Source: Campylobacterales bacterium
GTDB lineage: Bacteria > Campylobacterota > Campylobacteria > Campylobacterales > QNZT01
Direction of reading: 5' to 3'
Length of the DNA stretch: 35,907 bases
NCBI GenBank assembly: GCA_027056215.1
Contig: JALULO010000112.1
Span: 1 to 35,907, forward strand
Shown here: one piece after another, positions 55-19,792 of the stretch
Numbering within the stretch: the first letter of the stretch is position 1
Layout: every line of letters begins with the position of its first letter
Position numbers and translations under genes: made by a program
Notes under the pieces: generated by a model
What the model was told of the DNA's origin: nothing
The model's database searches: none
The model's input: only the letters and a program-made list of their open reading frames with translations

Positions 55-3000
55 TTATCGCATGATCTTGATCGCTTTTCTTTTTCTTGTGTATGTAAAG
101 TTATTATCAAAACTAGCTCCTTTAAAATTACCGCTTTTTATTCCTATCGTATTATTTGCAGCTTCGTAAATATACTCAAAACAAGGGTGTGAGGCACAAG
201 TGCTGTCTGTAGTAAAATTATAATCCTCATATCTGCTATACCAAAGCCATGGATCTATGGAAAGGTGATAAAACTTTTTGTATGATTTGTCGGTGCCTGC
301 TCCGATAGTGAAAGTTGCTTTTCCATTTGTTGCACTATTTTGATTTGTTGCTGTTGTTGTTAGCTTTCGTTTATCTTCATCGGTATAATTAATATCACTA
401 AAATCATCTTCTTTGTTAAGATACCATGAAAGGCTCTCTTGCTCAAATCCTGTTAAAGGAGTTGTCGAGTAGATCTGTACTCTCTGTGTAGCGTTGACAT
501 CTGTTTTATTTGTTTTGATGTCTTTGGTTATAACTCTACCATAATAAAAAGTAGCATTGCCAGTAAAAGTTTGATGTTTGGTGGCGTTTACTTCATGGTC
601 GATACTATCTATGGCAGTTATGTTTATATCGCTATTTGCTCCATCTAGTGAAATAGGATTTTTAGTGACATTTCTATCTCTACCAAAATTAAAGTGTCTC
701 TCTGCGTAAGAGATGGTTTTAACACCTCCGATAAAGTCTGATTGTGTGATGGTTTCAGCCGAGAGTGTTGGGGTTTGTTCTACTGTTAATTGTAGTGAAA
801 GGTCAATATTGTTCGCAAACCATTTGTCTTGTGGATCTCTATAGTTTGTCATAGTTGCACCTTTTTCTCCAAGTGCTGTTATCTTAAAGTCAAGATTTTT
901 CAAATCCGCACTCATGTGTACTAAGTCATTTGCAAAGTATGTAAAACTCCGCCCATGATTGTCCATAGTTGGAGTTTGATCAAAAGTTATCTCAAATCTA
1001 TCAGGTATAAAGGTTAGGTTTTGCTCCAGATAGATTGTTCTGTCTATCAGAGGCGTATCATCGCTATCGACCTCTGCCCATGTTGTATCATTTAAATCTA
1101 ATCCAATATCTCCGACATTGTTGAAGCTAAGTGTTGTATCTGCCGTTACGCCATTGGTAAATGCAAAGTTGGCAGTTGGTAAAAATGCACCATCCATAGC
1201 TGAGCCATCGCTACCATCTCTAAAATATTTTTTATTTGCAGGAGTGAGAGAGGTGTTGTAGTCATCTGTTGTAGTTGTTCCATCACTATTTACCGCATGT
1301 GCTTGAAAGGTATAATCATGTTCGGATATAAGTTTTTGCGTCAAAGCATCTGATGAAGTTAGTACAAACTTGTCTGGACGGATAGAGAAAGTATCAGTTG
1401 CGTTGGATTCTACACTATTTCCATCATAGATACCTGTGATTTTTATCTTTGCACATTTTACCGCTTTGTTGTGGGTAAAGGAAACAGGATTAAAACAGGC
1501 ACTACTGTTTACCTCCTCGTTTCCACTCCATAGCTCTGTGGTGTCGTAAAGTGTGCTACATGAAGCATCTGAAAAACTTAAAAGTTCTAGTTTTGTAACA
1601 TTGACATCACTTAGAGAGTTGTTGTTATCGTTCTCATCTGCTGATAGGATAGTGAGGTCGATAGGACTTCCTGCTATTTTGGTGGTGATGTTGTTATCCC
1701 AGTTGAAACAGCCTCCGTTTCGGTTTACGGCGTTGAAAATGGCTTGAGAGCAGATGATATCACGCACAAGATCTTTTTCACTGTTGTAAAGTGAATCGAC
1801 AGTTGTGGCGTTTAGCTCGCCTTTGTAGATTTTCAACTCATCGAGGTAGCCGGTGAAGCGGTTATCGGTATTTCCTGTCCATCCTCCGATTCTTGCGCTG
1901 CTGTTTGCAATGGCGAGTGTGTTGTTGGGCGTACCCTGAAGTTGGGATAAATTTTGTAATATTCCATCTATATATAGTCTGTTCGAGTACATATCCCCAT
2001 TGGTAAAAACTGCTGTAATATGATGCCATCCATTTGCCAACCCGTCACTACTGATACCATATAAATCCCCATTAGATGAATTAAAACCAAAATATGTATC
2101 AGGCGTCCATAAATCATTCCATTCCCATCCAAATGGCATTTTACCATTGGTGCCATCCCAATACATCCAAAATGTAACCGTATTTTTTTTGTATTTTTCT
2201 GTCGAGACAGCAAGGTTATCTATATCTACTGCTCCACCATCAAGTTTTAAGGCATGTCCAATTTTTTTCTCATCTTTACTGAGGTTCGCATCATCTATGA
2301 TAGTTCCGTTGTTGTCTCCTCCTGCAGTATCTATCACCTCTCCTGTTGCACCTGTATATTTACACGCATCAAAATGATACTCTGCTAAAAGAACGGGAGT
2401 GGTACAGTCTACAGCCATGCGGTGGAAGCCGTCGTAGTTTTTGTGTAGCGTTGTGTTGCCTTCATTGTCGTAGATGGTTTGTACTTGTGTAGCATTGAGT
2501 CCTGTATCAAAAATCTTTAGTTCATCAATGATACCACCAAAATAATCATCACCATCACCAGTCCAAGTTGATTTTGCAATATAATTCACTGTTCTTGTAA
2601 CATTAGAGGGCATAAAGTCAAATGTATCTGAAGCTTTTTCAACACCATCAATATAGATTTTTGCATGTTTATTATTATCAAGTGTGGCTACAATATGGTG
2701 CATATCACCATCAATAACATCATCTGATGTTTCGATACCTTCATATTTGTCATTGTCATCGTCATCGTCACCCATATTTTCAAAAATTCCGAAGTTTAAT
2801 TTTTTGGTATCTTCTTTACGTGATAATGCTATTCCATTTTCCCCTCTGCCTGTTGTCATCTCTATAATCTTTTGATAACTTCCATCTGTATCAAAACGCA
2901 CCCATGCAGATATCGTGAAACCTTGAGAAAAATCAGCATCTATATCTGGCAAGTCAATATAGTCATCTGTTCCATCAAAGCTTGCACCATGGTTGATCTT

Positions 3001-3948
3001 AGCATCTTGTACAGTTGTTCCATTGATATCTGTCGCATGAAGCGCATGTCCACTATAATCAATCACTTCATGACTTGTACCATCCCAAGCACAACTATCA
3101 AAGTGATAATCAACAATCGGAACCAATATCGTACACACTCCTGAAATCGCCAGTTTTTGTGCAGCTGCTATATCATAAGTGATTTTTGTATCATCTTTGA
3201 CTTCAATATCCTGCCCTGTTACAGCACCGGTGATTTCAACATTTTTGCCTATTTTAATGTCGTCCTTAGCGTAGAAAAAGCCTTCATAAGTACCATCATC
3301 ATCAATATCTATTTTATTTGTTTTGTCATCTGATGCACTCAAAAGAATGAAATTTTCCGGATGATTTTTTGTATCAATCTTACTGTTTTTGTCAAATGTT
3401 GTGTCATTATAGACATAGATAATCAGTGAAGCGCCCTCTTTGATATCGATGGTAACATTTTGACCCAGTTTAAATTCGTCTACATACAGTATGACATGAC
3501 CATCGATAACAAGGGAATCACAGTCATCTTCAAGTTCAAAAGTGTCGTTAGTGCGAATCGTGATATCTCCTTGAAGTGTCAAAGTAGTATTTTCTTTCAC
3601 TTTAACTTCGCTATAGTTTTCATCATTACTTATCGTTGTATCACTGTCGATGTCCAGATCGTCGTCACTATCACCCAATTCATCCTTATCGATTGTAAAA
3701 GAGAGTGACGGTACTGTCGTGTCATTTGCGACACAGGTATCTCCATCACATGTTCCATCATTGTCTTTGAGATTATCAGTATAAATAGAACCATTGTCGG
3801 TATTGTTCAGTTCAGAGTTCTCATCTAAGTTTAATTCGCCACCGTCCAATGTCGCCACAGGACCAGCAAAAGTACTTTCGCAGACTGCTGCCTCAGCAAT
3901 CAGAGGGAAAAGGATAAAAGATAAAATGATGATAATTTTATATAACAT
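55..3948 (-). CDS. Secreted MshQ-like protein with two LamG (concanavalin-like lectin) domains
   Basis: Uninterrupted 1297-aa ORF with AAGGA about 8 nt upstream of the ATG. N-terminal signal peptide (MLYKIIIILSFILFPLIAEA). Repetitive beta-helix-like N-region. Two LamG-like units at aa ~279-495 (nt 2464-3114) and aa ~521-722 (nt 1783-2388), each starting (A/D)-Y-H-F-D-x-C and ending (I/L)DELKI(F/Y)...LNAT. The C-terminal ~570 aa are colinear with the C-terminus of the 2502-aa ORF. The architecture matches what I recall for MSHA-pilus MshQ proteins (LamG plus DUF6701-type C-terminus). Confidence 0.72.
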   Translation of the reverse strand: MLYKIIIILSFILFPLIAEAAVCESTFAGPVATLDGGELNLDENSELNNTDNGSIYTDNLKDNDGTCDGDTCVANDTTVPSLSFTIDKDELGDSDDDLDIDSDTTISNDENYSEVKVKENTTLTLQGDITIRTNDTFELEDDCDSLVIDGHVILYVDEFKLGQNVTIDIKEGASLIIYVYNDTTFDKNSKIDTKNHPENFILLSASDDKTNKIDIDDDGTYEGFFYAKDDIKIGKNVEITGAVTGQDIEVKDDTKITYDIAAAQKLAISGVCTILVPIVDYHFDSCAWDGTSHEVIDYSGHALHATDINGTTVQDAKINHGASFDGTDDYIDLPDIDADFSQGFTISAWVRFDTDGSYQKIIEMTTGRGENGIALSRKEDTKKLNFGIFENMGDDDDDNDKYEGIETSDDVIDGDMHHIVATLDNNKHAKIYIDGVEKASDTFDFMPSNVTRTVNYIAKSTWTGDGDDYFGGIIDELKIFDTGLNATQVQTIYDNEGNTTLHKNYDGFHRMAVDCTTPVLLAEYHFDACKYTGATGEVIDTAGGDNNGTIIDDANLSKDEKKIGHALKLDGGAVDIDNLAVSTEKYKKNTVTFWMYWDGTNGKMPFGWEWNDLWTPDTYFGFNSSNGDLYGISSDGLANGWHHITAVFTNGDMYSNRLYIDGILQNLSQLQGTPNNTLAIANSSARIGGWTGNTDNRFTGYLDELKIYKGELNATTVDSLYNSEKDLVRDIICSQAIFNAVNRNGGCFNWDNNITTKIAGSPIDLTILSADENDNNNSLSDVNVTKLELLSFSDASCSTLYDTTELWSGNEEVNSSACFNPVSFTHNKAVKCAKIKITGIYDGNSVESNATDTFSIRPDKFVLTSSDALTQKLISEHDYTFQAHAVNSDGTTTTDDYNTSLTPANKKYFRDGSDGSAMDGAFLPTANFAFTNGVTADTTLSFNNVGDIGLDLNDTTWAEVDSDDTPLIDRTIYLEQNLTFIPDRFEITFDQTPTMDNHGRSFTYFANDLVHMSADLKNLDFKITALGEKGATMTNYRDPQDKWFANNIDLSLQLTVEQTPTLSAETITQSDFIGGVKTISYAERHFNFGRDRNVTKNPISLDGANSDINITAIDSIDHEVNATKHQTFTGNATFYYGRVITKDIKTNKTDVNATQRVQIYSTTPLTGFEQESLSWYLNKEDDFSDINYTDEDKRKLTTTATNQNSATNGKATFTIGAGTDKSYKKFYHLSIDPWLWYSRYEDYNFTTDSTCASHPCFEYIYEAANNTIGIKSGNFKGASFDNNFTYTRKRKAIKIMR

Positions 3949-3994: not shown

Positions 3995-4034
3995 ATTAAT
4001 GTTATAAATATTGAATCAATAATATATTCAAATA

Positions 4035-4071
4035 TTATTTTTGTGGGATACTCCCACCCTACGGCTTTTTT
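4035..4071. repeat. Palindromic repeat, copy B (37-bp extended unit; core 4043-4064)
   Basis: ttatttttGTGGGATACTCCCACCCTACGGctttttt. It matches copy C at 34 of 37 positions, and two of the three differences fall in the hairpin loop. Confidence 0.85.
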
Positions 4072-4140
4072 ACATGTTGTTTAGCACATTCCATACCGTT
4101 TTAAAAACTTTTGCTAAAATAGCTACTATCTATATAAAAG

Positions 4141-4177
4141 TTATTTTTGTGGGATTTTCCCACCCTACGGCTGTTTT
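4141..4177. repeat. Palindromic repeat, copy C (37-bp extended unit; core 4149-4170)
   Basis: ttatttttGTGGGATTTTCCCACCCTACGGctgtttt, 106 bp downstream of copy B. It sits over the expected -35 position of the Uma2-gene promoter. Confidence 0.85.
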
Positions 4178-6957: not shown

Positions 6958-7819
6958 TTTTTCGTGTCAAACACATCGCAAACCCTTTCTCATAATAAGC
7001 CGCTTCATTGATAAAAAGGGGATAAAGCGGTTCTTCTTCCTCATAGTAAATCGTCTTTTCAGCAAGGGTATAAAAGAGTGGATCACCTTTTGTAATCTTT
7101 TGATAATCTCTATCTTGTCTTTGTTCATGTACCATCGCGGTGATATCGCCATTTGCATCTCGTGGATAGTCTAGTAGCTTGACATGATCATAGATTTCGA
7201 TTGGATTTTGATTGGTTGGTATGTTTTTGTGCTTGTTGTACCTCTGTATAAAATCAAGCAGATGGTAGATGAGTTGGGCGGTTTGTGTAAAGAGATTTGC
7301 CCGTAAAACGCCTTGCGGAATGGCTCCCACTTCGATAGCAAAACCATGGGGTGCGATGGAGTCAACAAAAGCATCTTCCTCATCACCCATCCATCGATAT
7401 ACATGGAGTTTTGGCTCTTTGGCACAGAGATAACGAACAGCGTCCCAAGTCAGAGAACTTTGTGAACTAACAACGAGTGAAAGCCCCATATTTGCAGTGG
7501 TGGAGTGCAGATCAACGATAAAGTCAACTTTGGGATTTTTACTCCCTTTAGGTCCTAGCATTGTGTTGAGTTCATATGCACGTTTTGCTTCATAATGATC
7601 ATGTTCTTCGTTGAGTTGAGTGGTTTGAAAAGAACGGTTTAAATCTTTGTCAATGTAGCGCCTGCAAGCTTTGATGGCTTTTGGGTTTGTATGGATAAGG
7701 AGTGTTTCAAAGTTTTCTCTATGAACCAGATTGGGTTGTTCTTGCCATTTTTTGATCAGATAGACACCGGTTAGTTCATTGCCGTGTGTTCCTCCTGTGA
7801 TCGCTACTTTGTTGATCAT
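6944..7819 (-). CDS. Aspartoacylase / succinylglutamate desuccinylase (AstE-AspA) family zinc hydrolase
   Basis: 291 aa with SD AAGGAGAG. The N-terminus VAITGGTHGNELTG and the later DLHSTT motif are typical of the family. Its 3' end overlaps the convergent helicase gene by 14 nt. Confidence 0.85.
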   Translation of the reverse strand: MINKVAITGGTHGNELTGVYLIKKWQEQPNLVHRENFETLLIHTNPKAIKACRRYIDKDLNRSFQTTQLNEEHDHYEAKRAYELNTMLGPKGSKNPKVDFIVDLHSTTANMGLSLVVSSQSSLTWDAVRYLCAKEPKLHVYRWMGDEEDAFVDSIAPHGFAIEVGAIPQGVLRANLFTQTAQLIYHLLDFIQRYNKHKNIPTNQNPIEIYDHVKLLDYPRDANGDITAMVHEQRQDRDYQKITKGDPLFYTLAEKTIYYEEEEPLYPLFINEAAYYEKGFAMCLTRKITLT

Positions 7820-7986
7820 GTGGCTCTCCTTGACATTTTTTTGATTATAGCGTTAAGAAGTTTGCGATAACATGAACAAAATGAAGGATTAAAAATCTTT
7901 GATATCAGTGATGTAAATAATGTGCAAAGAGTGGGTGTATTGAAATTTTGATTTAAGACGATATTCCTTTTAAAAGGAGATGTCGC

Positions 7987-8475
7987 ATGAAAGTGAAACA
8001 TACCAAATGGTTTTTACAACTTAGTTTTGTACTTGTTGTTTTGACGCTTGGTGGTATCTATCTGTTGTATAGTAAAATACATAAAAATGATGTTCATACA
8101 TACCAAGCTGTATTGGCTCATAACAATACAGAAGAGTTTTCAGAGTTTTTATATGAAAACAGAGATAAATTTGTCCATCTCAGTATTGTTTTGTCTGAGT
8201 CAATGAAGCAAGATGTTATCAAAGGGATGGATCAAGATGGTCGCATCATATTTCATGCACCACGTTCAAATACCGATAAAACGCTGACAAAATACTTGAT
8301 TCGTTTACCCGATGATGGTAGGAGAGATTTTTCATTTGACCAGACAAGTGGCAAACTTGAGGGCTATTTTAAAACATACAAACGCAAAGATAGTGATGGT
8401 TGTGTCTTGATAAATCTTGTACCTATCAATCCTGCATGGCTTCCAAAAGTTGATGGTATTGTAAAACAAGGTTAA
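7987..8475 (+). CDS. Hypothetical N-terminally membrane-anchored protein
   Basis: 162-aa ORF with AAGGAGA upstream and one N-terminal TM helix (WFLQLSFVLVVLTLGGIYLLY). I recognise no family. It is co-directional with the giant gene and 62 nt upstream of it. Confidence 0.5.
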   Translation: MKVKHTKWFLQLSFVLVVLTLGGIYLLYSKIHKNDVHTYQAVLAHNNTEEFSEFLYENRDKFVHLSIVLSESMKQDVIKGMDQDGRIIFHAPRSNTDKTLTKYLIRLPDDGRRDFSFDQTSGKLEGYFKTYKRKDSDGCVLINLVPINPAWLPKVDGIVKQG

Positions 8476-8537
8476 ACTTTTTTCATTTTTGGACGATATT
8501 TCTTTCATAATATACTATATATGAAAGGTGTCGTCAT

Positions 8538-11500
8538 ATGATATCGCAAAGATTTTTTAGATTTTTTCTTCTAATTATACTATTTATGCTAAATCTACAA
8601 GCAGCAGATAGTTGTACTTCTCCAACAGCTGTACTTAGCCTCAACAATACACTGACAGGTCAATATATAGACAAACCTTTTATCAATGGTCAATCTGGTA
8701 GTGGTGAAGCCCTTTATTATAAGATCACATTATCTCAAAATGGTACACTTGTTTTACGAACCAATATAGATGCAACACACTCTTCTGATACAGTAGATAC
8801 GTACGCTGAGTTACTTGATAGCAGTTGTGCAAAGATTGAAGATGTGCCTATGGTCTCTTCAAATCCTCGTCTTATAAAAGAAGATAAATCACTTGTATCT
8901 GGTACGTATTATCTTAAAGTCTACAACAAAATCGATATCAATGATGGCAGCTTGGAAAACGCAAATGGGTATTTTCAAATCCAAAACACTCTTACAACAT
9001 CGCTCCCAAGTCATGATATCTCTTTTTTTAGAGACCATGTAAACAGTATGCAATCAGGCAGTGAAATCATACAACATTTTTATGTCAGAAATAACGGATC
9101 TGTTTCTACCGCTGCTGTTAAAGTGACTATCCCATCTCATACTCCTGCCGGAAATTTAAACTTTGTCTCTAAAGTCAATTCAACACAATGGAGTTGTAGT
9201 AGTGGCGATCCTATTGTTTGTACACTCAACAGTGGCACCATAGCAACCAACGAAATACAAGAGTTACAATTAAAATATAAATCAAATTATGCTACATCCG
9301 ATAGAACAGTAAGCAATCAGGCAAAAGCTGATATCACCTTTACAGATGCGACTACGATGCAAAAGACTGCAACCAGAAGTGTGGATATATATAAAGAAAT
9401 ACCAGGTATTCATATAGAAAAAAGTGCGCCAGATTCCGTGATACGCAACAATACTTTTGACTATACATGGACTATTGATAACAATGGAACATTGCCAGAT
9501 GACAATGTAACAGTTACAGATAAAATTGGAACTGATTTTGATATCGTCAGTATAAATTATGATGCATCTGTGTGGAAGAACTGTGGTTACAGTGGTAAAA
9601 ATGTTTCATGTGAATTGATTAATCCACTACAACCAGGTTATGCAAATCGTCAATCTTTTCAGATCCAAGTTAAAGCTACAGGTGATCCTGCTAATCCTGA
9701 AGGAGTGACACACTATGCTATTGTAAATGCAGATACCGTTATGGGACATGTTAGTGATGATGATGCAAAAAATGTAACAATCATCGCACAAAGTTTTATA
9801 GCTACCTTAACAAAAACAGCTAGTGTGTCACAAGTGATGGTTGGGCATGATGCGTATTATAATGTTACCGTAGCAAATACTGGTAATAGTGCATTGAGTA
9901 ATGTTCGCATAACAGATAATGTACCTTCTGAGTTAACATTATCGTCGTTGAGTAATACAAGTGGTTGGGATTGTTCTGCATCCAATATCGCTTCAAATAG
10001 TGTAGATTGTACTCTAAATTCAGATTTGGCAGCTGGTGCGGCAAAAAGTTTGAGAGTTAATGTCAAAGGAAAAACAGTAGCAAATAGTGTTACCAATACT
10101 GCTACTGTGAATACTACCGAGGCACCTCCTGCAAATGGATCTGATACTCTGGATGTTATAACAGCAACACCCTCTATAAAAATTTATAAAGGTGGACCTT
10201 CAAACATTAAAAGTCTACATAAATATTATTATACTTTTAGTGTTCAAAATGATGGTTCTGAAATCGATCACAATGTTACAGTCACAGATACTATAGATAC
10301 ACAACTGACTTTACCTACGGACTGGGATGATGCTGTAGATGCCACATGGAGTTGTGGTAAAAGTGGACAAACAGTAACGTGTACCTATGCAAATGATTTT
10401 TATCCTGGTGATTCTACACCAACTTTGTATATCAAAGTACAAGCACCGTATGTTACATCAGATACACCGATTTCAAATACAGCTGTTGTCAATGCGGATG
10501 GATCAGGAATACCGCTTACAGACAGTTCTACAGTGAGTACTACCATAAATACCCCTACAGAGGGGATAAAACTGGATAAGACGGTAAGCTCTCCTACTGT
10601 AAACTCAGCTGCCTATTTTACCTATACACTAAATGTTGAAAACAATGGTACGTTAGATGAAACAACGATAAAAGTGATAGACGATCTTCCTACGCAATTG
10701 GATGGCAATGGTGTGATTGATAGTGGGACAGATGCTGACTTTGATTGTTCTGCATCTTCTGGTAAACATATCGAGTGTACGCTTGCTTCTTTACCTGCAG
10801 GTGTTTCTAAGTTGATAAAGATAAAAGTCAAAGCACCGATTGTTACAACTAATACAACTATAACAAATCATGCAAATACATCGGCAAAAATCGTTGTAGC
10901 AGGTTTTGTAGATGATACGACTACTGCAAATGGACATGTGAGTGTAACTATCTTACCGCCGGCTTCTGATTTGATTATCAGTAAAACAGCTCCAAAGAGT
11001 GTGGCATTGGAAAATGATCTCTTTTATTATACGATCAAAATACGTAATAATTCCATAGCAGACGAACACAATGTTACTATGACAGATGATGTACCACATG
11101 ACTTACAGATTCAAAACATAGTGGCTAGTGGTTGGACGTGTACAACTTCTAGCAATCTCATAACTTGTCAGATGAGTGATCTGCTTGCAAATACACAAGC
11201 TCAGGATATCAATATCAGTGTCAAAGCACCTAATACCATAGCCACACAAAAAACGATAACCAATACGGCTAAAGTCACTTCTGTAAAAGAGATTGGTGGA
11301 AAAACAGCACACGTAGATATAACACTCATGCCTGCGAATAAAGCGTTAAATATGCATATAAGTAGTCATCCATCTACTGTATATGCAGGTAATGAATACT
11401 ATTATAAAATCTTTATGACAAATAATAGTGGTCGTGATATTGATGATATCAATATTACAGATACATTGCCAGCTGATGTGACATATGTACGTTATGACAG

Positions 11501-14500
11501 TGGTGGTTGGAATTGTCACTATAACAGTGTAACGCGTCTCTTTTCATGTGACAATAACGGTACAAAATTTCATGGTGGAGATAAAGAGATAAATCTTTAT
11601 GTGACTGCTCCATCATATGAAACAAATGTCACAAATAGTGCTTCAATCGTTTCAAACCTCTCACCTGAAGTGATTGATGGCAATGTAACAACCACAGTCA
11701 TAGGCAAAACTGCCAAACTAACGTATGCGAAATCACAAAGTGATAAAGCAGTTGTAAAGATAAATGAACCATTTACCTATTCGGTCGCTGTGTTTAATGC
11801 CGGAGATGATCCTTCCTCAGAAGTGAATGCAACAGATATCAATGTTTCTTTTGCATTAGATCAAAATATCTCAGTACTTTCCTATAGTGCACAGGATTGG
11901 AATTGTTCACAAAGTGGACAAAACTTTACCTGTATCTATACCAAAGCACTAGATGTAGGTATCACAACACCAGATGTCAATCTAACAGTCAGTGGCGCAT
12001 CCCCAGGACAGAAGATAACATATATCGCTACAAAAGCTAAAGAGATGCCAACATCTGTTACGGATTCAATCAGTGTTGATATTAAAGATGTGGTACATAC
12101 AGACCTCTCACTAAGTATAGATGATAGTTTAGATCCAGTTGATGCCAATGATGGGTATAATTATACGCTTATAGTACGTAATCCACATATTAGTAAAGCA
12201 GTTGAAGATATCGTTGTAGATATCAATACAACCAGTACACGAGATTATACCTATATAGATTATAGTGATGTTAATGTTTGGAATTGTTCTCATAGCACAA
12301 AACATGTGCGATGTTTATTGAAAAATAATTTACCAGCAGACAGCAATGTCAGCTTACAGCTCAATGTCCAAGCACCCAATCTTTCTACTATCATCGATGT
12401 TAATGCAAGTGTCTCATCACAATATGTCATCGATTTCAATAAAGTAAATAATAGTGCAACAGAATCCACAGATGTTATCGATGCAAACGTAACAGGTGAT
12501 GCGCCAAGAGTGTTTACGAAAGTACCTATTTTAGGTAATGAAGATACCAATATCTTTGGCGATATTATCACGATCGGTAACCAGTCTATTTGTGAGAAAA
12601 ATGCTTTTGGACAGTGTCGAGAACCTAGTTATATGGTCAACGATCTTATAACACAAAAATATGTTAATTTAGATACTTTTTTCGGAATGGGACATAAAAG
12701 TGCAACCAATGCAAAGTTTACTATCAGTAGTGATGATGAGGTAGTATGGGCTGGTTTATATTGGATGGGTAGGATAGATAAGACACAAGCTGGAGCCAGC
12801 ACTAAGATGAAAAATGCCAATAAAGTCTTTTTTCGTCATAACAGTGATACAACATATCATAAGCTTTATAGCGTTAGACACGCAGATGCTATAGATAACA
12901 ATGGCACACTTATTCAAGTTGATAAATTTAACTATATCAATAGCAGCGATTATTTTGATTATCAAGGGATGGCTGATGTCACGGCATATGTTAAAGCACA
13001 TCGTGGTGGTACGTATTGGGTTGCTGATGTACAGTCAAGTGAAGGTGAAAATATTACAGCTGGTTGGAATTTGGTTGTGATTGTGATGGATACAAATGCA
13101 AATCCTGCACACAGTTTGAAAAATATTACACTATTTGATGGTTTTGAAGGTGTATGGAAATCACCAGGGGATACGGGTGATGCTTATCCTGATGAAGTCA
13201 ATGCACATGTCAGTGGTTTCTTAACACCGGCTAACGGTTTGATTGATTCTTCATTATCCTTTTTTGCTTTTGAAGGAGATCGTTTACTAAAAGATAATAT
13301 TCAGATTAGTGATGATGCCTCTATCATGCACACTCTTGTCAATGCCAAAAATCCCGCTGATGATGTAGTAAATGGTACTATTTCAAAAAATGGTATTACA
13401 GTAAGTGACAGGATGCCTCATCTTGATAATACATCAGGGATTGATATAGACCAATTTTATCTTGGTGATATCAATGGTACATTGGGCAGTGGTATTATTA
13501 AAAATGGACAAACATCTACTGATATCAAAATCGCTTCTGATGGTGATAGATTTTTCTTAGGTATGTTCGCGTTTGCTACATCACTATATGATCCAGTTTG
13601 TTATAATCAAAAACTTCAAAGTGCTGATTTCTCTTCACCACTTGGCAGTGAAGTGCATTTGGGTGATGAGATAGGTATTGAAGTAGAGTTTCACAACAAA
13701 GAGGTACAAACATTAAATAATTTTAAAGCATTGACTGATATTGATACGATTCTCAAAGATGACAATACAAGTTTTGAATTGAAAAATATCAATGCTTCAG
13801 GAAATCTTGAAGCAAGTTTTACGGCACAAAATACGCTGTTTAAATTTTCAAAAATAGATACAGGAGATGCAAATCAAACCGAAGTGATCGTAAATGCGGG
13901 TAAAGGATCTAATGGTACAAATGGTGGGGATTTAAGAGCAACGGATAGTATTTTCTTCCGTTATAAAGCAGTTGTTGCTGATTTGTATGATGTCAATAAA
14001 TCCCACAATATCTATAAAGCGATTTATGCACCGGCAAATAAAAAAGTAATGGTTCCTCCATGTGGTGCACAACCGAGTTTTCCAACAGTGAAAAAAAATA
14101 ATACCAGCGGCTTTGCAATAACGCATAAAAATGGTGTTACAGATGGTATCCTTGATGGTTTTGTTGGAGGTGACATCAGTAAACCTTCTAATGAAAACCA
14201 TCTTTTTACGCAAGTTTCAGATACAAACTTTTCAGTTGACATCGTTGCATTGGATGACAATAACAATAAAATGCTTAGATCCAATAACTATAAAGGTATT
14301 TTGAAACTTGATATCGTTGATACATCAGATACAACAAAAGAGTGTAAAACCTATCCAGTGATTGATAGTGACTATGTATCTATGGATGCTATTGTATCAA
14401 CACATACGATTTCATATAGTACTGCTAAAAAATCTGTTGCTTTTAGAACGCATTATCTAGTAGACAGTTATGGTAGATATATTCAATGGGGTTCACTTTC

Positions 14501-16046
14501 TAATAGCCTTACAAATTTTCAAACTATTTTACAAAATGCATCTTTTAGTGATCATCGTTGTCAAACAGAATGTCTCACCTCCCAAAACTTAGACAATTGT
14601 CGTGATTGTGTCTATAAAAATGTTGATAATGGTGGTTTTAGTAAATATACTTGTTCTACTGATAGTTTTGCTATCAAACCAAAAAATATTTCTATCGATG
14701 TTAATAGCACTGCAACAAATTTAAAAGGCGGAAAAACATATAGTCTTGATTTTAATGCTTCATTTTCGGCTTATGATCAAACTATTGATGCTTCTACAGG
14801 AACATTAAACAGGGCATTAAATGTGCCTTCTGGTTGTACGCTCTTGGCTGCAAATACTTCCATCATACCAACAGGTGGATTGGTTTTTAACAATGGGATT
14901 GCCAGTTTGTCATCGTTTACATATCCAAATGTAGGAGATGTAAATATAACATTTGAAGATCATGCGTGGACTATATATGATCAAAATAGTACAGATGCTA
15001 ACATGAGTGATTGTATCTTAGGTAGCAATACAAATACACCTGATTCTAATGGAAAAGTTGGATGTAATATCGCTTCTAAAAAGATGTTTCATTTTGTACC
15101 AGACACTTTTTCAAATAGTATCATTTTAAAAGATTTTAATGCCAGTGGTTTTGTCTATTTATCTCCTGGTGATTCTAATATGGCAGCAACGATTGCATTT
15201 CAAACCAAAGCGGTTTTGGCAAATGGAAGTGTTGCAACAAATTATACCAATGGTTGTTTTGCACAAGATGTGAACTATCAGTTTAGTTTTACCAATCCTA
15301 CTATACCTGCAAATGCTGGTGGTATTAGCTATTTTGATGATGGAGGTGTTACCTCTACTTATCATGGTACACCACATTCAGGAGATTTTGATACCACACA
15401 GAGTCATTTTAATAGTGGTATTGCAAATATAGATATAAAATTTAATTTTAATAAAAATGCGATGGTTGCGGTAAATCCATTTGAAATCAATAAAAATGAT
15501 TTTAATATTACAGGCATTGTTGATACAAATGGTGCAAGTGGAAGTGACTTTAATCGAAGTGTCAATCAAAGTATCCCTTTTTACTATGGACGTTTACATA
15601 TACCTGATATCACAGTAGATAAACCACAATGTACAATGCCTCTGTATTATGAAATATATTGTAAAGATTGTAATAAAAGTCGATATACATTAGCAAACAA
15701 TCCTGAAAGTGTAGACAGTGTTAATTGGTATAATATCAATACAATACATACAACTGCTTTACAGGGAAGTTTCAGTGGTGAACATACGAACAATGGTGTG
15801 CATGTTGGGACAAAAACACTCAAAGGTGTCAATCTCTCTTTAAATGGGATCAAACCACCTTATAAAGATAAAGTTGTTGTGAATCCTTCAAGTTGGTTGT
15901 TGTTTAATCCTTTTGTTGCAACAACAAAAACTTGGGGTAAAGTTGATTTTACAAGTGCTGCAAAAGAGTGGGCTGGTAAAGGAAAGTTGGGTTATACCGT
16001 AGATAGTAATATATCTAAAAGAGATATTAAAAAGATGGATTGGTAA
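8538..16046 (+). CDS. Giant (2502 aa) secreted multidomain surface protein: PPC-like domain, 9 DUF11-like repeats, unassigned central domain, MshQ-like C-terminal module
   Basis: Single uninterrupted ORF. Signal peptide (FFLLIILFMLNLQA). Aa ~55-130 resemble a pre-peptidase C-terminal (PPC) domain (ALYYKITL...GTYYLKVYN). Nine ~95-aa repeats span aa 158-1280. The C-terminal ~650 aa are colinear with the 1297-aa protein: TDSFAIKPK vs TDTFSIRPD, YPNVGDVNITFED vs FNNVGDIGLDLND, FHFVPDTF vs LTFIPDRF, and FYYGR in both. Confidence 0.75.
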   Translation: MISQRFFRFFLLIILFMLNLQAADSCTSPTAVLSLNNTLTGQYIDKPFINGQSGSGEALYYKITLSQNGTLVLRTNIDATHSSDTVDTYAELLDSSCAKIEDVPMVSSNPRLIKEDKSLVSGTYYLKVYNKIDINDGSLENANGYFQIQNTLTTSLPSHDISFFRDHVNSMQSGSEIIQHFYVRNNGSVSTAAVKVTIPSHTPAGNLNFVSKVNSTQWSCSSGDPIVCTLNSGTIATNEIQELQLKYKSNYATSDRTVSNQAKADITFTDATTMQKTATRSVDIYKEIPGIHIEKSAPDSVIRNNTFDYTWTIDNNGTLPDDNVTVTDKIGTDFDIVSINYDASVWKNCGYSGKNVSCELINPLQPGYANRQSFQIQVKATGDPANPEGVTHYAIVNADTVMGHVSDDDAKNVTIIAQSFIATLTKTASVSQVMVGHDAYYNVTVANTGNSALSNVRITDNVPSELTLSSLSNTSGWDCSASNIASNSVDCTLNSDLAAGAAKSLRVNVKGKTVANSVTNTATVNTTEAPPANGSDTLDVITATPSIKIYKGGPSNIKSLHKYYYTFSVQNDGSEIDHNVTVTDTIDTQLTLPTDWDDAVDATWSCGKSGQTVTCTYANDFYPGDSTPTLYIKVQAPYVTSDTPISNTAVVNADGSGIPLTDSSTVSTTINTPTEGIKLDKTVSSPTVNSAAYFTYTLNVENNGTLDETTIKVIDDLPTQLDGNGVIDSGTDADFDCSASSGKHIECTLASLPAGVSKLIKIKVKAPIVTTNTTITNHANTSAKIVVAGFVDDTTTANGHVSVTILPPASDLIISKTAPKSVALENDLFYYTIKIRNNSIADEHNVTMTDDVPHDLQIQNIVASGWTCTTSSNLITCQMSDLLANTQAQDINISVKAPNTIATQKTITNTAKVTSVKEIGGKTAHVDITLMPANKALNMHISSHPSTVYAGNEYYYKIFMTNNSGRDIDDINITDTLPADVTYVRYDSGGWNCHYNSVTRLFSCDNNGTKFHGGDKEINLYVTAPSYETNVTNSASIVSNLSPEVIDGNVTTTVIGKTAKLTYAKSQSDKAVVKINEPFTYSVAVFNAGDDPSSEVNATDINVSFALDQNISVLSYSAQDWNCSQSGQNFTCIYTKALDVGITTPDVNLTVSGASPGQKITYIATKAKEMPTSVTDSISVDIKDVVHTDLSLSIDDSLDPVDANDGYNYTLIVRNPHISKAVEDIVVDINTTSTRDYTYIDYSDVNVWNCSHSTKHVRCLLKNNLPADSNVSLQLNVQAPNLSTIIDVNASVSSQYVIDFNKVNNSATESTDVIDANVTGDAPRVFTKVPILGNEDTNIFGDIITIGNQSICEKNAFGQCREPSYMVNDLITQKYVNLDTFFGMGHKSATNAKFTISSDDEVVWAGLYWMGRIDKTQAGASTKMKNANKVFFRHNSDTTYHKLYSVRHADAIDNNGTLIQVDKFNYINSSDYFDYQGMADVTAYVKAHRGGTYWVADVQSSEGENITAGWNLVVIVMDTNANPAHSLKNITLFDGFEGVWKSPGDTGDAYPDEVNAHVSGFLTPANGLIDSSLSFFAFEGDRLLKDNIQISDDASIMHTLVNAKNPADDVVNGTISKNGITVSDRMPHLDNTSGIDIDQFYLGDINGTLGSGIIKNGQTSTDIKIASDGDRFFLGMFAFATSLYDPVCYNQKLQSADFSSPLGSEVHLGDEIGIEVEFHNKEVQTLNNFKALTDIDTILKDDNTSFELKNINASGNLEASFTAQNTLFKFSKIDTGDANQTEVIVNAGKGSNGTNGGDLRATDSIFFRYKAVVADLYDVNKSHNIYKAIYAPANKKVMVPPCGAQPSFPTVKKNNTSGFAITHKNGVTDGILDGFVGGDISKPSNENHLFTQVSDTNFSVDIVALDDNNNKMLRSNNYKGILKLDIVDTSDTTKECKTYPVIDSDYVSMDAIVSTHTISYSTAKKSVAFRTHYLVDSYGRYIQWGSLSNSLTNFQTILQNASFSDHRCQTECLTSQNLDNCRDCVYKNVDNGGFSKYTCSTDSFAIKPKNISIDVNSTATNLKGGKTYSLDFNASFSAYDQTIDASTGTLNRALNVPSGCTLLAANTSIIPTGGLVFNNGIASLSSFTYPNVGDVNITFEDHAWTIYDQNSTDANMSDCILGSNTNTPDSNGKVGCNIASKKMFHFVPDTFSNSIILKDFNASGFVYLSPGDSNMAATIAFQTKAVLANGSVATNYTNGCFAQDVNYQFSFTNPTIPANAGGISYFDDGGVTSTYHGTPHSGDFDTTQSHFNSGIANIDIKFNFNKNAMVAVNPFEINKNDFNITGIVDTNGASGSDFNRSVNQSIPFYYGRLHIPDITVDKPQCTMPLYYEIYCKDCNKSRYTLANNPESVDSVNWYNINTIHTTALQGSFSGEHTNNGVHVGTKTLKGVNLSLNGIKPPYKDKVVVNPSSWLLFNPFVATTKTWGKVDFTSAAKEWAGKGKLGYTVDSNISKRDIKKMDW
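9009..12380 (+). repeat. Nine tandem ~95-aa Ig-like (DUF11 / conserved-repeat-domain-like) coding repeats
   Basis: Recurrent pattern: Y/F-x-Y-T-hydrophobic-x-V-x-N-x-G, then D/E-x-N-V-T-V-T-D, then W-x-C followed ~8-10 residues later by a second C, ending V-K-A-P or V-Q-A-P. The repeats are divergent at DNA level and recognisable only at protein level. Confidence 0.75.
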
Positions 16047-16049
16047 GAG

Positions 16050-16757
16050 ATGAAAAAAAGTGGATTTAGTTTGATAGAATTAGTATTTGCGATTGTTATT
16101 ATTGCTATTTCTGTCATGACAATTCCTTTGATGCTGTCACAAAGTGCTAAAAATGATAGTTTTTCTCTCATGCAGGAGTCTATCCTTGCAGCAAGAACAA
16201 AGATGGGCAATATTCTCAGTTATATGTGGGATGATAATGCCATTGAAACAAATAGCACGATGATTGTTGTTTTAGATGTAAAAAATGGTGACAGTGAACT
16301 TGATCGTAATATGAGTACACTCAATAGCAATAGAAGAATAGGGCATATTCCAAAAGATAAAAGAAGACATATGATGGAAGGGAACAGTACTGTTATGACA
16401 TTTCCCTCAACTGCTGTGGATGTCAATATAACGGACTTAAACGATTTTGATGCTAAAACTACGTCTATAGCTTTTAGTGGAACTGGAAGTGCAACTGATA
16501 ACTTTGATTATTTAGATAAAAATCTCTCACTTGCAACAAAAGTTTATTATATCGATGATAAAACAGACTATAACGCTACAAATATTACATTTGATTTTGA
16601 TGTAAGTACTAAAAAAAGTATAACAGCTGTAAATAATACGACAAATATCAAAATGATAGAGTTAAATGTAACAAGTCAAAGTTATCAGCCATTTGTATTT
16701 CGTACATTTTCATGCAATATTGGACAATCTAAATATCTCTATAGGACAGCAAACTGA
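16050..16757 (+). CDS. Prepilin-type (type IV pilin / T2SS pseudopilin-like) protein, minor-pilin candidate
   Basis: 235 aa. Class III signal peptide MKKSG|FSLIELVFAIVIIAISV (G-F-S-L-I-E with Glu5). It starts 3 nt after the giant gene stop. Confidence 0.78.
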   Translation: MKKSGFSLIELVFAIVIIAISVMTIPLMLSQSAKNDSFSLMQESILAARTKMGNILSYMWDDNAIETNSTMIVVLDVKNGDSELDRNMSTLNSNRRIGHIPKDKRRHMMEGNSTVMTFPSTAVDVNITDLNDFDAKTTSIAFSGTGSATDNFDYLDKNLSLATKVYYIDDKTDYNATNITFDFDVSTKKSITAVNNTTNIKMIELNVTSQSYQPFVFRTFSCNIGQSKYLYRTAN

Positions 16758-17695
16758 TGCAAATTATAAATGATACTAAACGTGAAGCATTTACCTTGAT
16801 AGAGATTATACTTGTTATTGTGATTTTAGGTATTGTCTCTATGATTGGTGCAGATATTATCGCACATATGTATGAAGGCTATACTCGTTCTAAAATAGTT
16901 AACGAATTGACGCAAAAAACAGAACTATCTATCGAGCAAATTGCAAAACGTTTACAATACAGAATCAAAAACACCACTTTTGCACGAGATAAAAATAATC
17001 CAAATACGATAAAACCCCTCTCTTCTGATGATTTAAATGAGACCTTCAATATGATAGAGTGGATAGGTTATGACAATGAAGGATTTTTGGGAGATTACAA
17101 CGGTTCTGTTAATGTTCCTGGATGGAGTGGTTTTGTTGATTTAAACAATGCCAACACTGATAAAACACAGATTGTGACACCAGGTTCACACCTAAGCTAT
17201 GCAAAAAGTACCATCAATGCACTCTCTTACAATGATATCGATATCTCCGCACCAACACCCGGTAAAGGTCCTGCCATAGTTTTTAAGTGTTGGAACAGCG
17301 TAGAACCAAAGATGTATGGATTTGACTATACCCATCCTAATGATCATAACAATACTTTGCGTGTTAAAAGTGTTGGTGAAGATGTCCTTCAATTTACTGA
17401 AAACCTTAATTCCAAAGAGTTATGTGAACAGTATTATCTAGCATGGTCGGCTTATGCACTTGTACCAGAGGGAAATGATGCAAATGATTTTAATCTAACG
17501 CTCTATTATAATTATCAACCATGGTATGGTGAGAAGTACAGTGATCCGGGAACGAAACATAGTGTTGTTGCTGAGCATGTCAGCACTTTTCGTTTTATCA
17601 AGGTAGGAAATACGGTTCGCATCAAACTCTGTATACAAGATGGTAATCAAACGGGTACAAGTGTTGGTATATGTAAAGAAAAGGCGGTGTTTTGA
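16757..17695 (+). CDS. Prepilin-like minor pilin (MshO/PilW-like size class)
   Basis: 312 aa. N-terminus ...KREA|FTLIEIILVIVILGIV (F-T-L-I-E with Glu5, Ala at -1). The ATG overlaps the upstream stop (TGATG). Confidence 0.7.
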   Translation: MQIINDTKREAFTLIEIILVIVILGIVSMIGADIIAHMYEGYTRSKIVNELTQKTELSIEQIAKRLQYRIKNTTFARDKNNPNTIKPLSSDDLNETFNMIEWIGYDNEGFLGDYNGSVNVPGWSGFVDLNNANTDKTQIVTPGSHLSYAKSTINALSYNDIDISAPTPGKGPAIVFKCWNSVEPKMYGFDYTHPNDHNNTLRVKSVGEDVLQFTENLNSKELCEQYYLAWSAYALVPEGNDANDFNLTLYYNYQPWYGEKYSDPGTKHSVVAEHVSTFRFIKVGNTVRIKLCIQDGNQTGTSVGICKEKAVF

Positions 17696-18138
17696 TGCGT
17701 AAAGGATTTGGACTATTGGTTGCGATTTTAATCATGATGACGGTTGCCTTGTTGATGACAATGATGATCTCTTACAGTACCAGTTCTGTAAAATCAACCA
17801 TTGACCTTTACTTAAAAGAACAAGCAGAGATCTTAACCAGAAATGCGACGGAGTATACGCTTTTAGCGATCTCGGGACACAATAACACACAAAATTGTAT
17901 TGAAGAAATCAATGCGACTTATCCTAGCGCTACAGCACCGACGCATCATATTCATGTCAATGTATGGTATATTGGAGATGGTATTCCTGTAAGTTGTTCG
18001 CATATTTTGGAAAACAATATTACAACAGCTGATTCTAATCTAACAGCTATTATTGATGTTGTTGTAAGTGTCGATCAAGCTAGAACAGGTATTACAGAGC
18101 CTATACGTTTACACAGACGGACAATTCAAAAACCTTGA
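17695..18138 (+). CDS. Small pilin-like protein lacking Glu5 (MshP/PilX/GspK-like class)
   Basis: MRKG|FGLLVAILIMMTVALL. The ATG at 17695 overlaps the upstream stop (TGATG). The ORF track starts it 3 nt earlier at a TTG (17692). 147-148 aa. Confidence 0.55.
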   Translation: MRKGFGLLVAILIMMTVALLMTMMISYSTSSVKSTIDLYLKEQAEILTRNATEYTLLAISGHNNTQNCIEEINATYPSATAPTHHIHVNVWYIGDGIPVSCSHILENNITTADSNLTAIIDVVVSVDQARTGITEPIRLHRRTIQKP

Positions 18139-18162
18139 TTTTACATACACTACACACTTATA

Positions 18163-18171
18163 TGCTATACT
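18163..18171 (+). promoter_or_regulatory. Extended -10-like element TGcTATACT
   Basis: Lies 37 nt upstream of the ATG at 18208, which has a strong SD (AGGAGAGAGAG). This suggests the small peptide gene has its own promoter. Confidence 0.4.
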
Positions 18172-18207
18172 TTACTTGTATTTAAAATTTAACACAGGAG
18201 AGAGAGT

Positions 18208-18429
18208 ATGCGTACAACAAAATTGATTATTGCATTATTGGCTGCGTCATTTATATCTACAGCAGTTTATGCAAAATGCGGCGGTGGTATGATGGATCAT
18301 GCGACAGCAAAAGCTAAAGAGGTTGTTTCGCAAGAAACAAATGCAACAGTACAAAAAGCCAAAACGACAGTTAAAACCAAAGCCAAAGAGATGGTAAAAG
18401 GTAAATGTGGCGTAGGAAAATGCGGTTGA
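18208..18429 (+). CDS. Small secreted Cys-Gly-motif peptide (73 aa; three KCG motifs)
   Basis: Strong SD. Sec signal peptide ending VYA. The mature ~51-aa Lys/Ala/Thr-rich peptide begins KCGGG and ends KGKCGVGKCG-stop. Confidence 0.6.
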   Translation: MRTTKLIIALLAASFISTAVYAKCGGGMMDHATAKAKEVVSQETNATVQKAKTTVKTKAKEMVKGKCGVGKCG

Positions 18430-18448
18430 TTATAAACCACTTTTAATC

Positions 18449-18612
18449 TCCCGTCCCGTCAATACGACCTTCCTTTGGCGGGACACCTTAAGTGTATTTG
18501 CACCATTTAGCATATCTCAAACGGCTTCACGGTGGGTATCCCCAAAATTTGTTCCAAATTTTGACCCTACCGCTGTAGATGTTATTCGATAAGCTAAACG
18601 GTGCAAATACAT
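18449..18612. other. Highly structured intergenic element (possible sRNA, 3' UTR structure or MITE-like element)
   Basis: Hairpin 18453-18458/18479-18484. Then a 117-nt rod: 18494-18511 pairs with 18593-18610 at 17 of 18 positions, extended by 18513-18516/18588-18591. Inner stem 18530-18537/18564-18572. Apical perfect 9-bp hairpin 18543-18551/18555-18563 with loop TTC. It lies upstream of the predicted obg promoter. Confidence 0.5.
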
Positions 18613-18654
18613 TTAGTACTAATAAAACATCATAATTTCATTCTCATCAATTTT

Positions 18655-18663
18655 TGCTATAAT
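18655..18663 (+). promoter_or_regulatory. Extended -10 promoter element TGcTATAAT (obg operon)
   Basis: Perfect TGnTATAAT 29 nt upstream of the obg ATG (18692). Confidence 0.5.
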
Positions 18664-18691
18664 CGCGAAAGATTATAATGCAAAGGCAAAT

Positions 18692-19792
18692 ATGTTTATA
18701 GATAATGTTGAACTGACACTCAGTTCTGGTAAAGGCGGTGCTGGTTCGGTATCGTTTCGTCAAGAGAAATTTGTTCTCAAAGGTGGTCCTGATGGTGGCG
18801 ACGGTGGACGTGGTGGTGATGTTTTTTTTCAAGTAGATAAAAATAGTCATACACTCTCCTCCTTTCGTGGCAAAAATCACATGAAAGCTAAAAATGGCAA
18901 TCCCGGTGAAGGACGAAAAAAGTATGGCAAAAAAGGTGAATCACTAACTGTTGTCGTGCCTCCTGGAACGCAAGTATTGGATCCACAAAGTGGTGAAGTT
19001 TTACTAGATTTAACCCAAGACGGAGAAATTGTAAAATTTTTAGAAGGGGGAAAGGGTGGACTGGGTAACTGGCACTTTAGAAGTTCCACCAATCAAAGAC
19101 CTACCTATGCACAGCCTGGGCTTCCAGGGGAGACAAAACAGGTGCGACTTGAGTTAAAGCTTATCGCTGATGTTGGTTTGGTAGGATTTCCAAATGTAGG
19201 AAAATCAACGCTTATCTCCACCGTATCCAATGCAACACCGGAAGTTGCCAATTATGAATTTACAACGCTTACACCAAAGCTGGGTGTTGTTCAGATTGAT
19301 GCTTTTAGTGCATTTGTGATGGCAGATATTCCCGGTATCATTGAAGGGGCGAGTGATGGTCGTGGTTTGGGATTTGATTTTTTACGGCATATCGAGCGTA
19401 CCAAGTTTTTGTTGTTCATGATTGATTTGGCAAATTATCGACCACTTGAAGAACAGTATGATGTTCTCAAAGAGGAGTTGGCAAATTTTTCAGATGAACT
19501 TAAAGACCGCAATTTTGCTATCGCTTTGAGTCGTGCTGATGCCTTGAGTGAAGAAGAAGTTGTAAGTAAAACCAGAGATTTTTTAAAACATTTGGATTTA
19601 AAAGAAGAGACACATGGCAATAAATACCAATTTTTAGAAAAGTTTCCAACATATCTACAAGATACTGAGTTACCGGCTGTGTATGATAAAACAAAACCTT
19701 TTTTCGTTGCACCCTTTTCATCAATATCTCAAATCAATATAGATCCACTTCGTTATGCACTCTCAGATATCGTATCCAAAGAGCAAATGTGA
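18692..19792 (+). CDS. obg: GTPase Obg/CgtA
   Basis: Glycine-rich Obg fold ([15 protein letters not shown]...[14 protein letters not shown]), G1 [10 protein letters not shown]3 DIPG. Confidence 0.95.

Follow-up and report, generated by a model that had tools for sequence, protein, structure and literature searches.

A free-standing MshQ/minor-pilin cassette with a giant putative adhesin as a candidate second tip module of an MSHA-type pilus in Campylobacterota

A 35,907-nt stretch of DNA from a Campylobacterales bacterium (assembly GCA_027056215.1, contig JALULO010000112.1), referred to here as the window, carries at positions 8538–18138 of its forward strand a cassette of four genes for a giant protein, Q2, and three pilin-like proteins, A, B, and C. 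We read Q2-A-B-C as a second, paralogous tip module of a pilus of the mannose-sensitive haemagglutinin (MSHA) type, which would display Q2 as a giant adhesin, with Q2 and Q1, the MshQ orthologue of a neighbouring pilus locus, as alternative tips. The probability of this reading can be put at roughly 0.7. That the cassette encodes a tip complex is supported by homology, synteny, and conservation, all taken from sequence; from these we infer the formation of the complex, the docking of the Q2 tail, the machine that is used, and the adhesive role. The novelty lies in a free-standing, duplicated tip cassette of MshQ and minor pilins, whose giant adhesin is unusual and which has a tail motif of its own; the cassette is widespread and unannotated in Campylobacterota.

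Organization of the cassette

The gene of Q2, a putative pilus-tip adhesin (8538–16046, +; 2502 aa by open reading frame (ORF) call), is followed on the same strand by those of the minor pilins A (16050–16757, 235 aa) and B (16757–17695, 312 aa) and of the tip pilin C (17692/17695–18138, 148/147 aa). They stand in the positions of GspI/PilV/MshD, GspJ/PilW/MshO, and GspK/PilX/MshP, respectively. The initial annotation of the window had described four tightly coupled, co-directional ORFs, and the ORF calls and junction reads bear this out. The Q2/A junction reads TAA-GAG-ATG, with a 3-nt gap at 16046/16050, and the A/B and B/C junctions are TGATG stop–start overlaps at 16757 and 17695. Promoter and terminator scans of 7700–18800 gave counts not above those of shuffled sequence and thus no information on the operon limits of the cassette.

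The pilin trio

The N-termini of A (MKKSG/FSLIE) and B (...KREA/FTLIE) both exceed the cut-offs of two profiles, Pfam N_methyl PF07963 (24.4 and 23.7 bits against 21.2) and TIGR02532 (21.3 and 23.1 bits against 16.3). The N-terminus of C (MRKG/FGLLV) has the G/F site and the hydrophobic helix, with Val at position +5 and no Glu+5, and C gave no match to the N_methyl hidden Markov model. Of the three prepilin N-termini proposed at the outset, those of A and B therefore stand on profile evidence and that of C does not. Such a C is nevertheless what is expected of K-type tip pilins. According to a 2026 PNAS study (PMC13533445), MshD/O/P are homologues of PilI/J/K and thus of GspI/J/K, and the K-type members (PilK/GspK/MshP) invariably lack Glu+5 and are apical.

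The pattern is constant across the loci surveyed below. Glu+5 is present at every A N-terminus located by motif scan (57 loci) and in B, is absent in 22/22 members of the C family, and the order A-B-C is kept in all loci. These C family members fall into separate subgroups, C-type and C1-type, the latter named after the corresponding pilin of the neighbouring locus. Type IV pilin-like proteins in the E+/E+/E- pattern of the GspI/J/K = PilV/W/X = MshD/O/P initiation trio are thus the supported assignment for A, B, and C at the sequence level. B, for which 1789 homologues were found, is modelled as a helix (residues 14–67) followed by a beta globular domain, a lollipop architecture with a predicted local distance difference test score (pLDDT) of 81.

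The same trio raises the question of a type II secretion system (T2SS). Q2 might be a secreted or outer-membrane-anchored adhesin that forms no fibre, the trio being the tip of a T2SS-like piston that pushes Q2 through a secretin. The GspI/J/K tips are indeed homologous to the trio in pattern: the GspH-I-J-K tip shares the prepilin-type N-termini and a last member without Glu+5, and the weak NCBIfam matches of the trio, confined to the N-terminal parts, are to the Gsp pseudopilins (GspI/J/K/H). Giant repeat-adhesin architectures are also found among secreted adhesins, and a transcriptome study of Sulfurovum indicum reports induction of MshL and of genes annotated as GspH/F/G on elemental sulfur (PMC10045233). 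The trio differs from the GspH-I-J-K tip in the giant adhesin gene that accompanies it, and all Gsp/Pil equivalog scores of A, B, and C are far under the cut-offs. Against the piston, C matches GspK only weakly and N-terminally (E 0.006; 16 bits vs a cut-off of 130) and is small (147 aa), like MshP/PilX and unlike GspK. Being less than half the size of GspK, it would need its terminal strand to be supplied in trans. The strict conservation of the Q2 tail and the MshQ homology described below also agree better with a stably docked Q2 than with a cargo recognised in passing, so that the piston explanation appears quite improbable.

The giant protein Q2

Residues 1–22 of Q2, judged by eye, resemble a Sec signal peptide. 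They are followed by a PPC-like domain (8715–8924, +; residues ~60–129), whose match to PF04151 covers profile positions 4–69 of 70 and is sub-threshold (18.0 bits vs a cut-off of 25.9; E 0.005). A stalk of nine DUF11/CLIPPER repeats (9030–12527, +; residues ~165–1330, approximate bounds) is far clearer, with PF01345 at E 1.8e-58 in 9 stretches and TIGR01451 at E 1.1e-28, and its tandem DUF11 repeats place Q2 among the DUF11/CLIPPER repeat surface proteins. Laminin_G_3 has no Pfam match on Q2 (Q1 matches at E 2e-37). A PPC domain plus a nine-repeat stalk had been suggested to replace the usual LamG region; the nine repeats and the absence of LamG hold, and the PPC domain is left as a likeness under its cut-off.

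The middle domain (12528–13640, +; residues ~1331–1700) is all-beta, conserved, and DUF3344-like. Here PF11824 was matched by 4/22 aligned Q2 homologues (best E 3.5e-6), tblastn found the segment upstream of the trio in many loci, and the structural model is beta-rich with a pLDDT of about 80–90. The MshQ-type C-terminal domain (14436–15914, +; residues ~1967–2459) ties Q2 to Q1, as the first reading of the window had claimed. BLASTP of the Q2 C-terminal region against Q1 (55–3948, -) gave E 3e-12, and hhalign of 19 Q2 C-termini against 7 Q1/MshQ C-termini, including the canonical gammaproteobacterial MshQ of locus L091, gave a probability of 100% (E 2e-45, 476 columns). On Q2 itself, no match was obtained to DUF6701 with the local Pfam copy, to the PilY1/PilC Pfam families, or to the PDB by sequence.

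The AlphaFold2 model of residues 1331–2502 (22 sequences; mean pLDDT 77.7) is an all-beta chain of sandwich domains without a PilY1-like propeller. Its Foldseek neighbours are generic multi-beta-sandwich proteins (alpha-2-macroglobulin, complement, Ig-like) with TM-scores of about 0.1. Among Q2 orthologues, conservation is limited to the middle and C-terminal parts, and the stalk of the variable N-terminal part is built of DUF11 repeats in the window and of Calx-beta, cadherin, He_PIG, or Big domains elsewhere. Such variability is typical of adhesins. When the final 600 residues of Q2 were searched exhaustively against cluster representatives (50% identity), 632 matched at E<=1e-3 and 442 of these at E<=1e-10. 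Among the 150 listed, the match reaches the C-terminal end or stops within ~70 residues of it, and the proteins are mostly 700–2700 aa long.

The C-terminal tail

Q2 ends in a flexible tail (15963–16043, +; ...KRDIKKMDW), here proposed as a pilin-docking strand. Its 27 residues, the last of the protein, are disordered in the monomer model, with a pLDDT below 50. The terminal Trp is present in 42/43 Q2-type locus proteins, with Arg/Lys at -4, and in 136/147 representatives (<=50% identity), where the motif is N-[RK]-[RK]-[ILMV]-[DEN]-W-COOH; the window protein has D-I-K-K-M-D-W. The Trp codon of Q2-type genes is frequently part of the overlapping A start codon, which could have been the origin of the residue. 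This explanation was rejected, as the W tail persists in at least 8 non-overlapping loci. Since the tail is equally conserved where the genes do not overlap, the window included, the constraint acts on the protein. In one locus (L015), a shortened Q2 lacks the W tail.

Q1-type proteins end differently, in [KR]-x-[VI]-K-[IVT]-[FLM]-R. The window Q1 has RKAIKIMR, and the canonical MshQ of L091 ends in ...FRREGFR. Proteins with the Q1 tail pair with C1-type pilins. More speculatively, the two endings, ...N-[RK]-[RK]-Φ-[DEN]-W for Q2 and ...K-[IV]-[FLM]-R for Q1, might act as address codes.

Pilus initiation requires the last ~6–12 residues of PilC/PilY1, which complete the K-pilin beta-sheet, and AlphaFold predicts that the C-terminus of MshQ, the counterpart of PilY1, likewise completes the MshP beta-sheet (PMC13533445). 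By analogy with that work, we infer that the Q2 tail would be such a docking strand. The sequence-level features of the scheme are all found in the cassette, namely an E+/E+/E- trio, a putatively Sec-exported protein of the MshQ family, and a conserved, module-specific flexible tail. The proposed logic, in which a minor-pilin complex and a large adhesin prime the fibre and stay at its tip, is also that of PilY1/PilC with FimU-PilVWX, including the Myxococcus xanthus sets. Q2 differs from PilY1/PilC in having no beta-propeller and in its sequence homology to MshQ, not PilY1.

A third tail class, ...DYAPA[IT][RQ]-COOH, was observed on the MshQ-type C-terminal domain of five proteins (P0213, P0221, P0226, P0229, and P0232). 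Their endings hint at further module families with tails of their own.

A paralogous module in a neighbouring MSHA-type locus

The initial annotation pointed out that no assembly genes lie nearby, and none for an ATPase, platform, secretin, or peptidase is found inside the 36-kb window. This is true of the window because of where it ends. Q1 (55–3948, -; 1297 aa), with DUF7305, two LamG stretches, and a DUF6701-type C-domain (PF28247 DUF6701_3rd in precomputed Pfam annotation), opens an MSHA-type pilus operon, the rest of which lies beyond the left edge. An exact-match lookup of the 1297-aa Q1 protein gave no record. The left flank was read from L009, a 96-kb metagenomic scaffold (ENA ERZ23495730 scaffold_40) found via an exact match to the window Uma2 protein, which differs from the window by 7 mismatches in 14,766 nt and reaches 5.8 kb past the left edge.

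On this scaffold, Q1 is followed by A1 (220 aa), the start codon of which is 32 nt outside the edge, then by B1 (294 aa), C1 (126 aa; MMRKA/FGLIQ, without Glu+5), and a fourth pilin (167 aa) whose best match is GspH-like. Next come a 499-aa coiled-coil ORF in the MshI/PilMN position and ORFs of 223 and 138 aa in the MshJ and MshK positions. These three ORFs, in the stretch L009 1–5745 (window -5776 to -32), have no significant Pfam or NCBIfam match, and their conservation in relatives points to a divergent alignment subcomplex. A secretin gene begins about 5 kb beyond the edge; its first 261 aa are visible, with TIGR02519 MshL as the best match (E 4e-21).

Relatives were found via a secretin search. 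This genome's own secretin was not returned, so that its MshM/N/E/G are deduced from relatives. In L010/L011 (69% identical secretin), L012, L080, and L082, MshL is followed by AAA_22 (MshM-like), TPR (MshN-like), an MshEN+T2SSE ATPase, and a T2SSF platform protein. L081 has the ATPase and platform and no secretin match, and L012 has two further pilins on the opposite strand. The L010 secretin exceeds the MshL equivalog cut-off (257.3 > 250.2 bits), and its ATPase has an MshE-type domain that binds c-di-GMP (NF053729, 67.9 vs a cut-off of 38 bits). The puzzle of a tip complex without a machine thus dissolves: a near-identical contig shows an msh locus just outside the window up to the secretin, and synteny extends it from there. 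The idea of an undescribed surface-fibre or adhesin system finds no support; the cassette is a paralogous module of a kind already known.

By sequence homology, Q2-A-B-C is a paralogue of the head of the msh operon. The pairwise homology with Q1-A1-B1-C1 is given by 22–31% identity and E 3e-12 to 6e-25, with individual values for A vs A1 of 26% (E 1e-11), for B vs B1 of 25% (E 6e-25), and for C vs C1 of 31% (E 9e-21). The four-gene order is the same in both modules, and both last pilins, C and C1, are without Glu+5. The Q-first order, initially listed as setting the cassette apart, is therefore the Campylobacterota arrangement and no peculiarity of the cassette; the local msh locus has it as well. 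In other respects, the two modules differ. Q1 is half the size of Q2, with DUF7305, LamG, and its own tail motif, and C1 is followed by a fourth pilin and assembly genes, whereas the Q2 cassette is free-standing.

Compared with the MSHA pilus of Vibrio cholerae and other Gammaproteobacteria, the cassette likewise has a large Sec-exported MshQ-domain protein beside three minor pilins, the last without Glu+5. The differences are that the canonical locus, exemplified by L091, has the order MshG-pilins-D-O-P-Q and thus D-O-P-Q where the cassette has Q-A-B-C; that the cassette stands free outside the msh operon and on the other strand; that the N-region of Q2 is PPC-like with nine DUF11 repeats and a DUF3344-like domain and no LamG; and that the Q2 ending ...[RK][RK]Φ[DEN]W contrasts with the ...[FLM]R of canonical MshQ and of Q1.

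Conservation in Campylobacterota

The survey of loci started from a B-based scan with one genome per GTDB species, which gave 80 loci, followed by tblastn and ORF calling. Almost all of the 80 belong to Campylobacterota, with carriers in Sulfurospirillum, Sulfurimonas, Sulfurovum, Nitratifractor, Sulfuricurvum, Hydrogenimonas, Campylobacter, and unclassified Campylobacterales. The four-gene unit proved to be conserved: a large ORF (about 700–2958 aa) homologous to the middle and/or C-terminal parts of Q2 lies directly upstream of A in about 50/58 evaluable distinct loci, and the Q stop and A start overlap by 8 nt (29 loci) or 4 nt (6 loci). The order Q-A-B-C is kept across families of Campylobacterota that share only 22–40% identity. 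L007, the closest relative, whose B is 79% identical, encodes a giant of 2508 aa at the equivalent place. Sulfurimonas sp. HSL3-7, a cultured isolate whose genome is complete, has a 1379-aa Q2 and, after it, ORFs of 210, 276, and 160 aa next to hpf.

In most cases, hpf comes after the cassette, and the ancestral neighbourhood seems to have been secA-lolE-Q2-A-B-C-hpf, as in L015. In the clade of the window (L007, L008, L013, and L014), the cassette moved beside obg. In free-standing Sulfurovum/Nitratifractor cassettes (L036, L043, L044, L045, L048, L060, L068, and L078), a fourth, GspH-like pilin follows C, as in the msh-locus module; the window cassette lost this pilin or never had one. Among the loci of this B-biased scan, the free-standing Q2 cassette is far commoner than the Q1-type module.

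The trio is found without an adjacent Q2 in two lineages with the order secA-lolE-A-B-C-hpf, in L013, and in Campylobacter spp., including C. ureolyticus. L013 is the closest GTDB relative with the trio beside obg. There, a 344-aa LVIVD-like lipoprotein (8160–9194), encoded upstream of A and after a cusCBA-like resistance–nodulation–division (RND) efflux operon, was considered as a substitute for Q2; it also ends in W, but as a lipoprotein beside that operon, with a 99-nt gap, it was rejected. Such loci, 7 or 8 in all, together with the shortened Q2 of L015, are what could be said for a juxtaposition without functional meaning, in which an adhesin gene came by chance to lie upstream of the trio or the cassette is a decaying copy. 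The intact ORFs, the overlapping stop and start codons, the Q-A-B-C order kept in divergent families, and the same order in the paralogous msh module make this highly improbable.

A different filament is a more serious alternative. The cassette could be the initiation or tip complex of, for example, a Cts-like (T2SS/T4P-like) DNA-uptake pseudopilus such as that of Campylobacter, in which case a pseudopilus for competence or secretion would be capped by Q2. The cassette lies mostly beside hpf with no msh genes seen within +/-10 kb, and Campylobacter spp. keep the A-B-C trio beside hpf without Q2. Moreover, the cts locus of C. jejuni is tabulated with a single pseudopilin (ctsG) and no GspI/J/K-like trio (PMC8308473), and its order ctsR-D-P-X-E-F resembles, in our own reading of tabulated order and sizes, that of MshK-L-M-N-E-G here. 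On the other side, the genome of the window and Nitratifractor S147_21, which has both module types (L035 and L081), pair the cassette with a full msh-type locus that bears its own module, and the C-domain of Q2 is specifically MshQ-like. The different filament is consequently judged unlikely, and the paralogous tip module of an MSHA-type pilus is preferred. The likeness is between ctsR-D-P-X-E-F of C. jejuni (105/472/202/195/519 aa; PMC8308473) and positions 7462–13212 of L010. By tabulated order and sizes, the Campylobacter transformation system may be a reduced MSHA-type machine.

Proposed mechanism and points against it

In the proposed mechanism, A, B, and C would be processed like prepilins and would assemble in the inner membrane as a GspI/J/K-like (MshD/O/P-like) initiation trimer, with C, which has no Glu+5, at its apex. 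Q2 would be exported by Sec, and its MshQ-type C-terminal domain would sit on the trimer while the flexible tail (...KKMDW) would dock into the C pilin, probably as an added beta-strand. Docking would license polymerisation and leave the Q2 adhesin at the pilus tip, where the PPC-like head, the stalk of nine DUF11 repeats, and the DUF3344-like domain would be displayed. The fibre would be built by machinery encoded elsewhere, for which the neighbouring MSHA-type locus (Q1-A1-B1-C1-pilin-MshI/J/K-like-MshL and, by synteny, M-N-E-G) is the most likely source. In that case, Q1 and Q2 would serve as alternative tips that differ in adhesive specificity. A precedent exists in Myxococcus, in which several minor-pilin/PilY1 sets per genome serve one machine (PMC7541494, PMC8833165). 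C. ureolyticus has been described as moving by type IV pili (PMC3758288), and this description and the induction in Sulfurovum indicum indicate that such machinery is not foreign to Campylobacterota. The analogy with a tip or priming complex that was drawn at first sight of the sequence gains support from the E+/E+/E- trio, the MshQ-type C-domain, and the conserved four-gene unit.

Several observations weigh against the MSHA-type tip module. MshM/N/E/G, the major pilin, and the prepilin peptidase are seen only in relatives and not in the stretch of this genome that was read. The cassette is 4.6 kb from the msh operon and on the opposite strand, and in most genomes it lies beside hpf, far from any machinery seen. 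The loci that have the trio and no Q2 imply that the trio can function without an adjacent Q2. The search for MshO/MshP relationships gave a divided answer: B aligns with canonical MshO at a hhalign probability of 96.5%, over the N-terminal 66 aa only, and C matches MshP with a probability of 26%, so that the globular parts of B and C have no significant similarity to those of canonical MshO and MshP. The model of B has no significant neighbour in the PDB by Foldseek (best E 0.075), which leaves B without a structural assignment to GspJ or PilW, and the Q2 model, a generic beta-sandwich chain, is uninformative on function.

A wider version of the proposal can be put forward tentatively. The cassette may be a widespread "plug-in" for pilus tips in which a tail address code pairs each adhesin with its own K-type pilin. 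Alternative adhesins would thus be mounted on one machine of the MSHA/Cts type, and where only the cassette is seen, it would serve as the sole initiation complex of the type IV filament of Campylobacterota, including that of a competence pseudopilus.

Significance

Type IV pili and MSHA-type systems have been little studied in Campylobacterota, a group that includes sulfur oxidisers of vents and sediments that need to attach to minerals, sulfur, or hosts. A likely role can now be assigned to a large and mostly unannotated protein family (442 clusters at 50% identity and E<=1e-10); most of the several hundred family clusters carried no source-given name. Three equally unannotated pilin families also gain a likely role, with 1789 matches for B alone. 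The presence of two paralogous modules with distinct tails in one genome is a natural test for the 2026 model of beta-strand addition. If the model is true, an adhesin given the tail of the other module would be expected to go to the tip trimer of that module. The puzzle of the missing machinery was solved once a few kilobases of sequence beyond the window edge were read, which illustrates a limit of window-based scans.

Other features of the window

A 162-aa membrane-anchored protein (7987–8475, +) is encoded 62 nt upstream of Q2, and its membership in the unit is uncertain. It has no Pfam or NCBIfam family match, and it was rejected as a member of the cassette because it is kept (68%) only in the nearest relative, L007, and is absent upstream of Q2 elsewhere. 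Between the genes of Q1 and Q2 lie those of Uma2, carbonic anhydrase, a PIF1-like helicase, and an AstE-like protein. The remaining genes of the window are housekeeping genes (obg, proB, fmt, birA, parAB, the atp operon, and tol-pal). Comparison of the whole window with Rfam gave no match at the gathering thresholds.

In the divergent intergenic region between Q1 and Uma2, a 50-nt element is present in two copies (4022–4071 and 4128–4177) that are 84% identical and 106 nt apart, each of which holds the palindrome GTGGGA-nnn-TCCCAC. An operator is one possibility, an element resembling repetitive extragenic palindromic (REP) sequences another.

Just 3' of the cassette, a 73-aa ORF (18208–18429, +) has an N-terminus that resembles a signal peptide and is rich in Cys and Gly at its ends (AKCGGG... 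/ ...KCGVGKCG). No family matched it, and a 71-aa ORF is found at the equivalent place in L008. Between this small ORF and obg lies a structured non-coding element (18440–18640) without an Rfam match and with no further copy among the fetched loci. It contains a 28-nt inverted repeat with arms at 18489–18516 and 18588–18615, which are 89% complementary and separated by a 71-nt spacer, and its RNA fold reaches -70.2 kcal/mol vs -33.8 for shuffled sequences (z = -9.0). The gap from C to obg is just 85 nt in the closest relative, L007.

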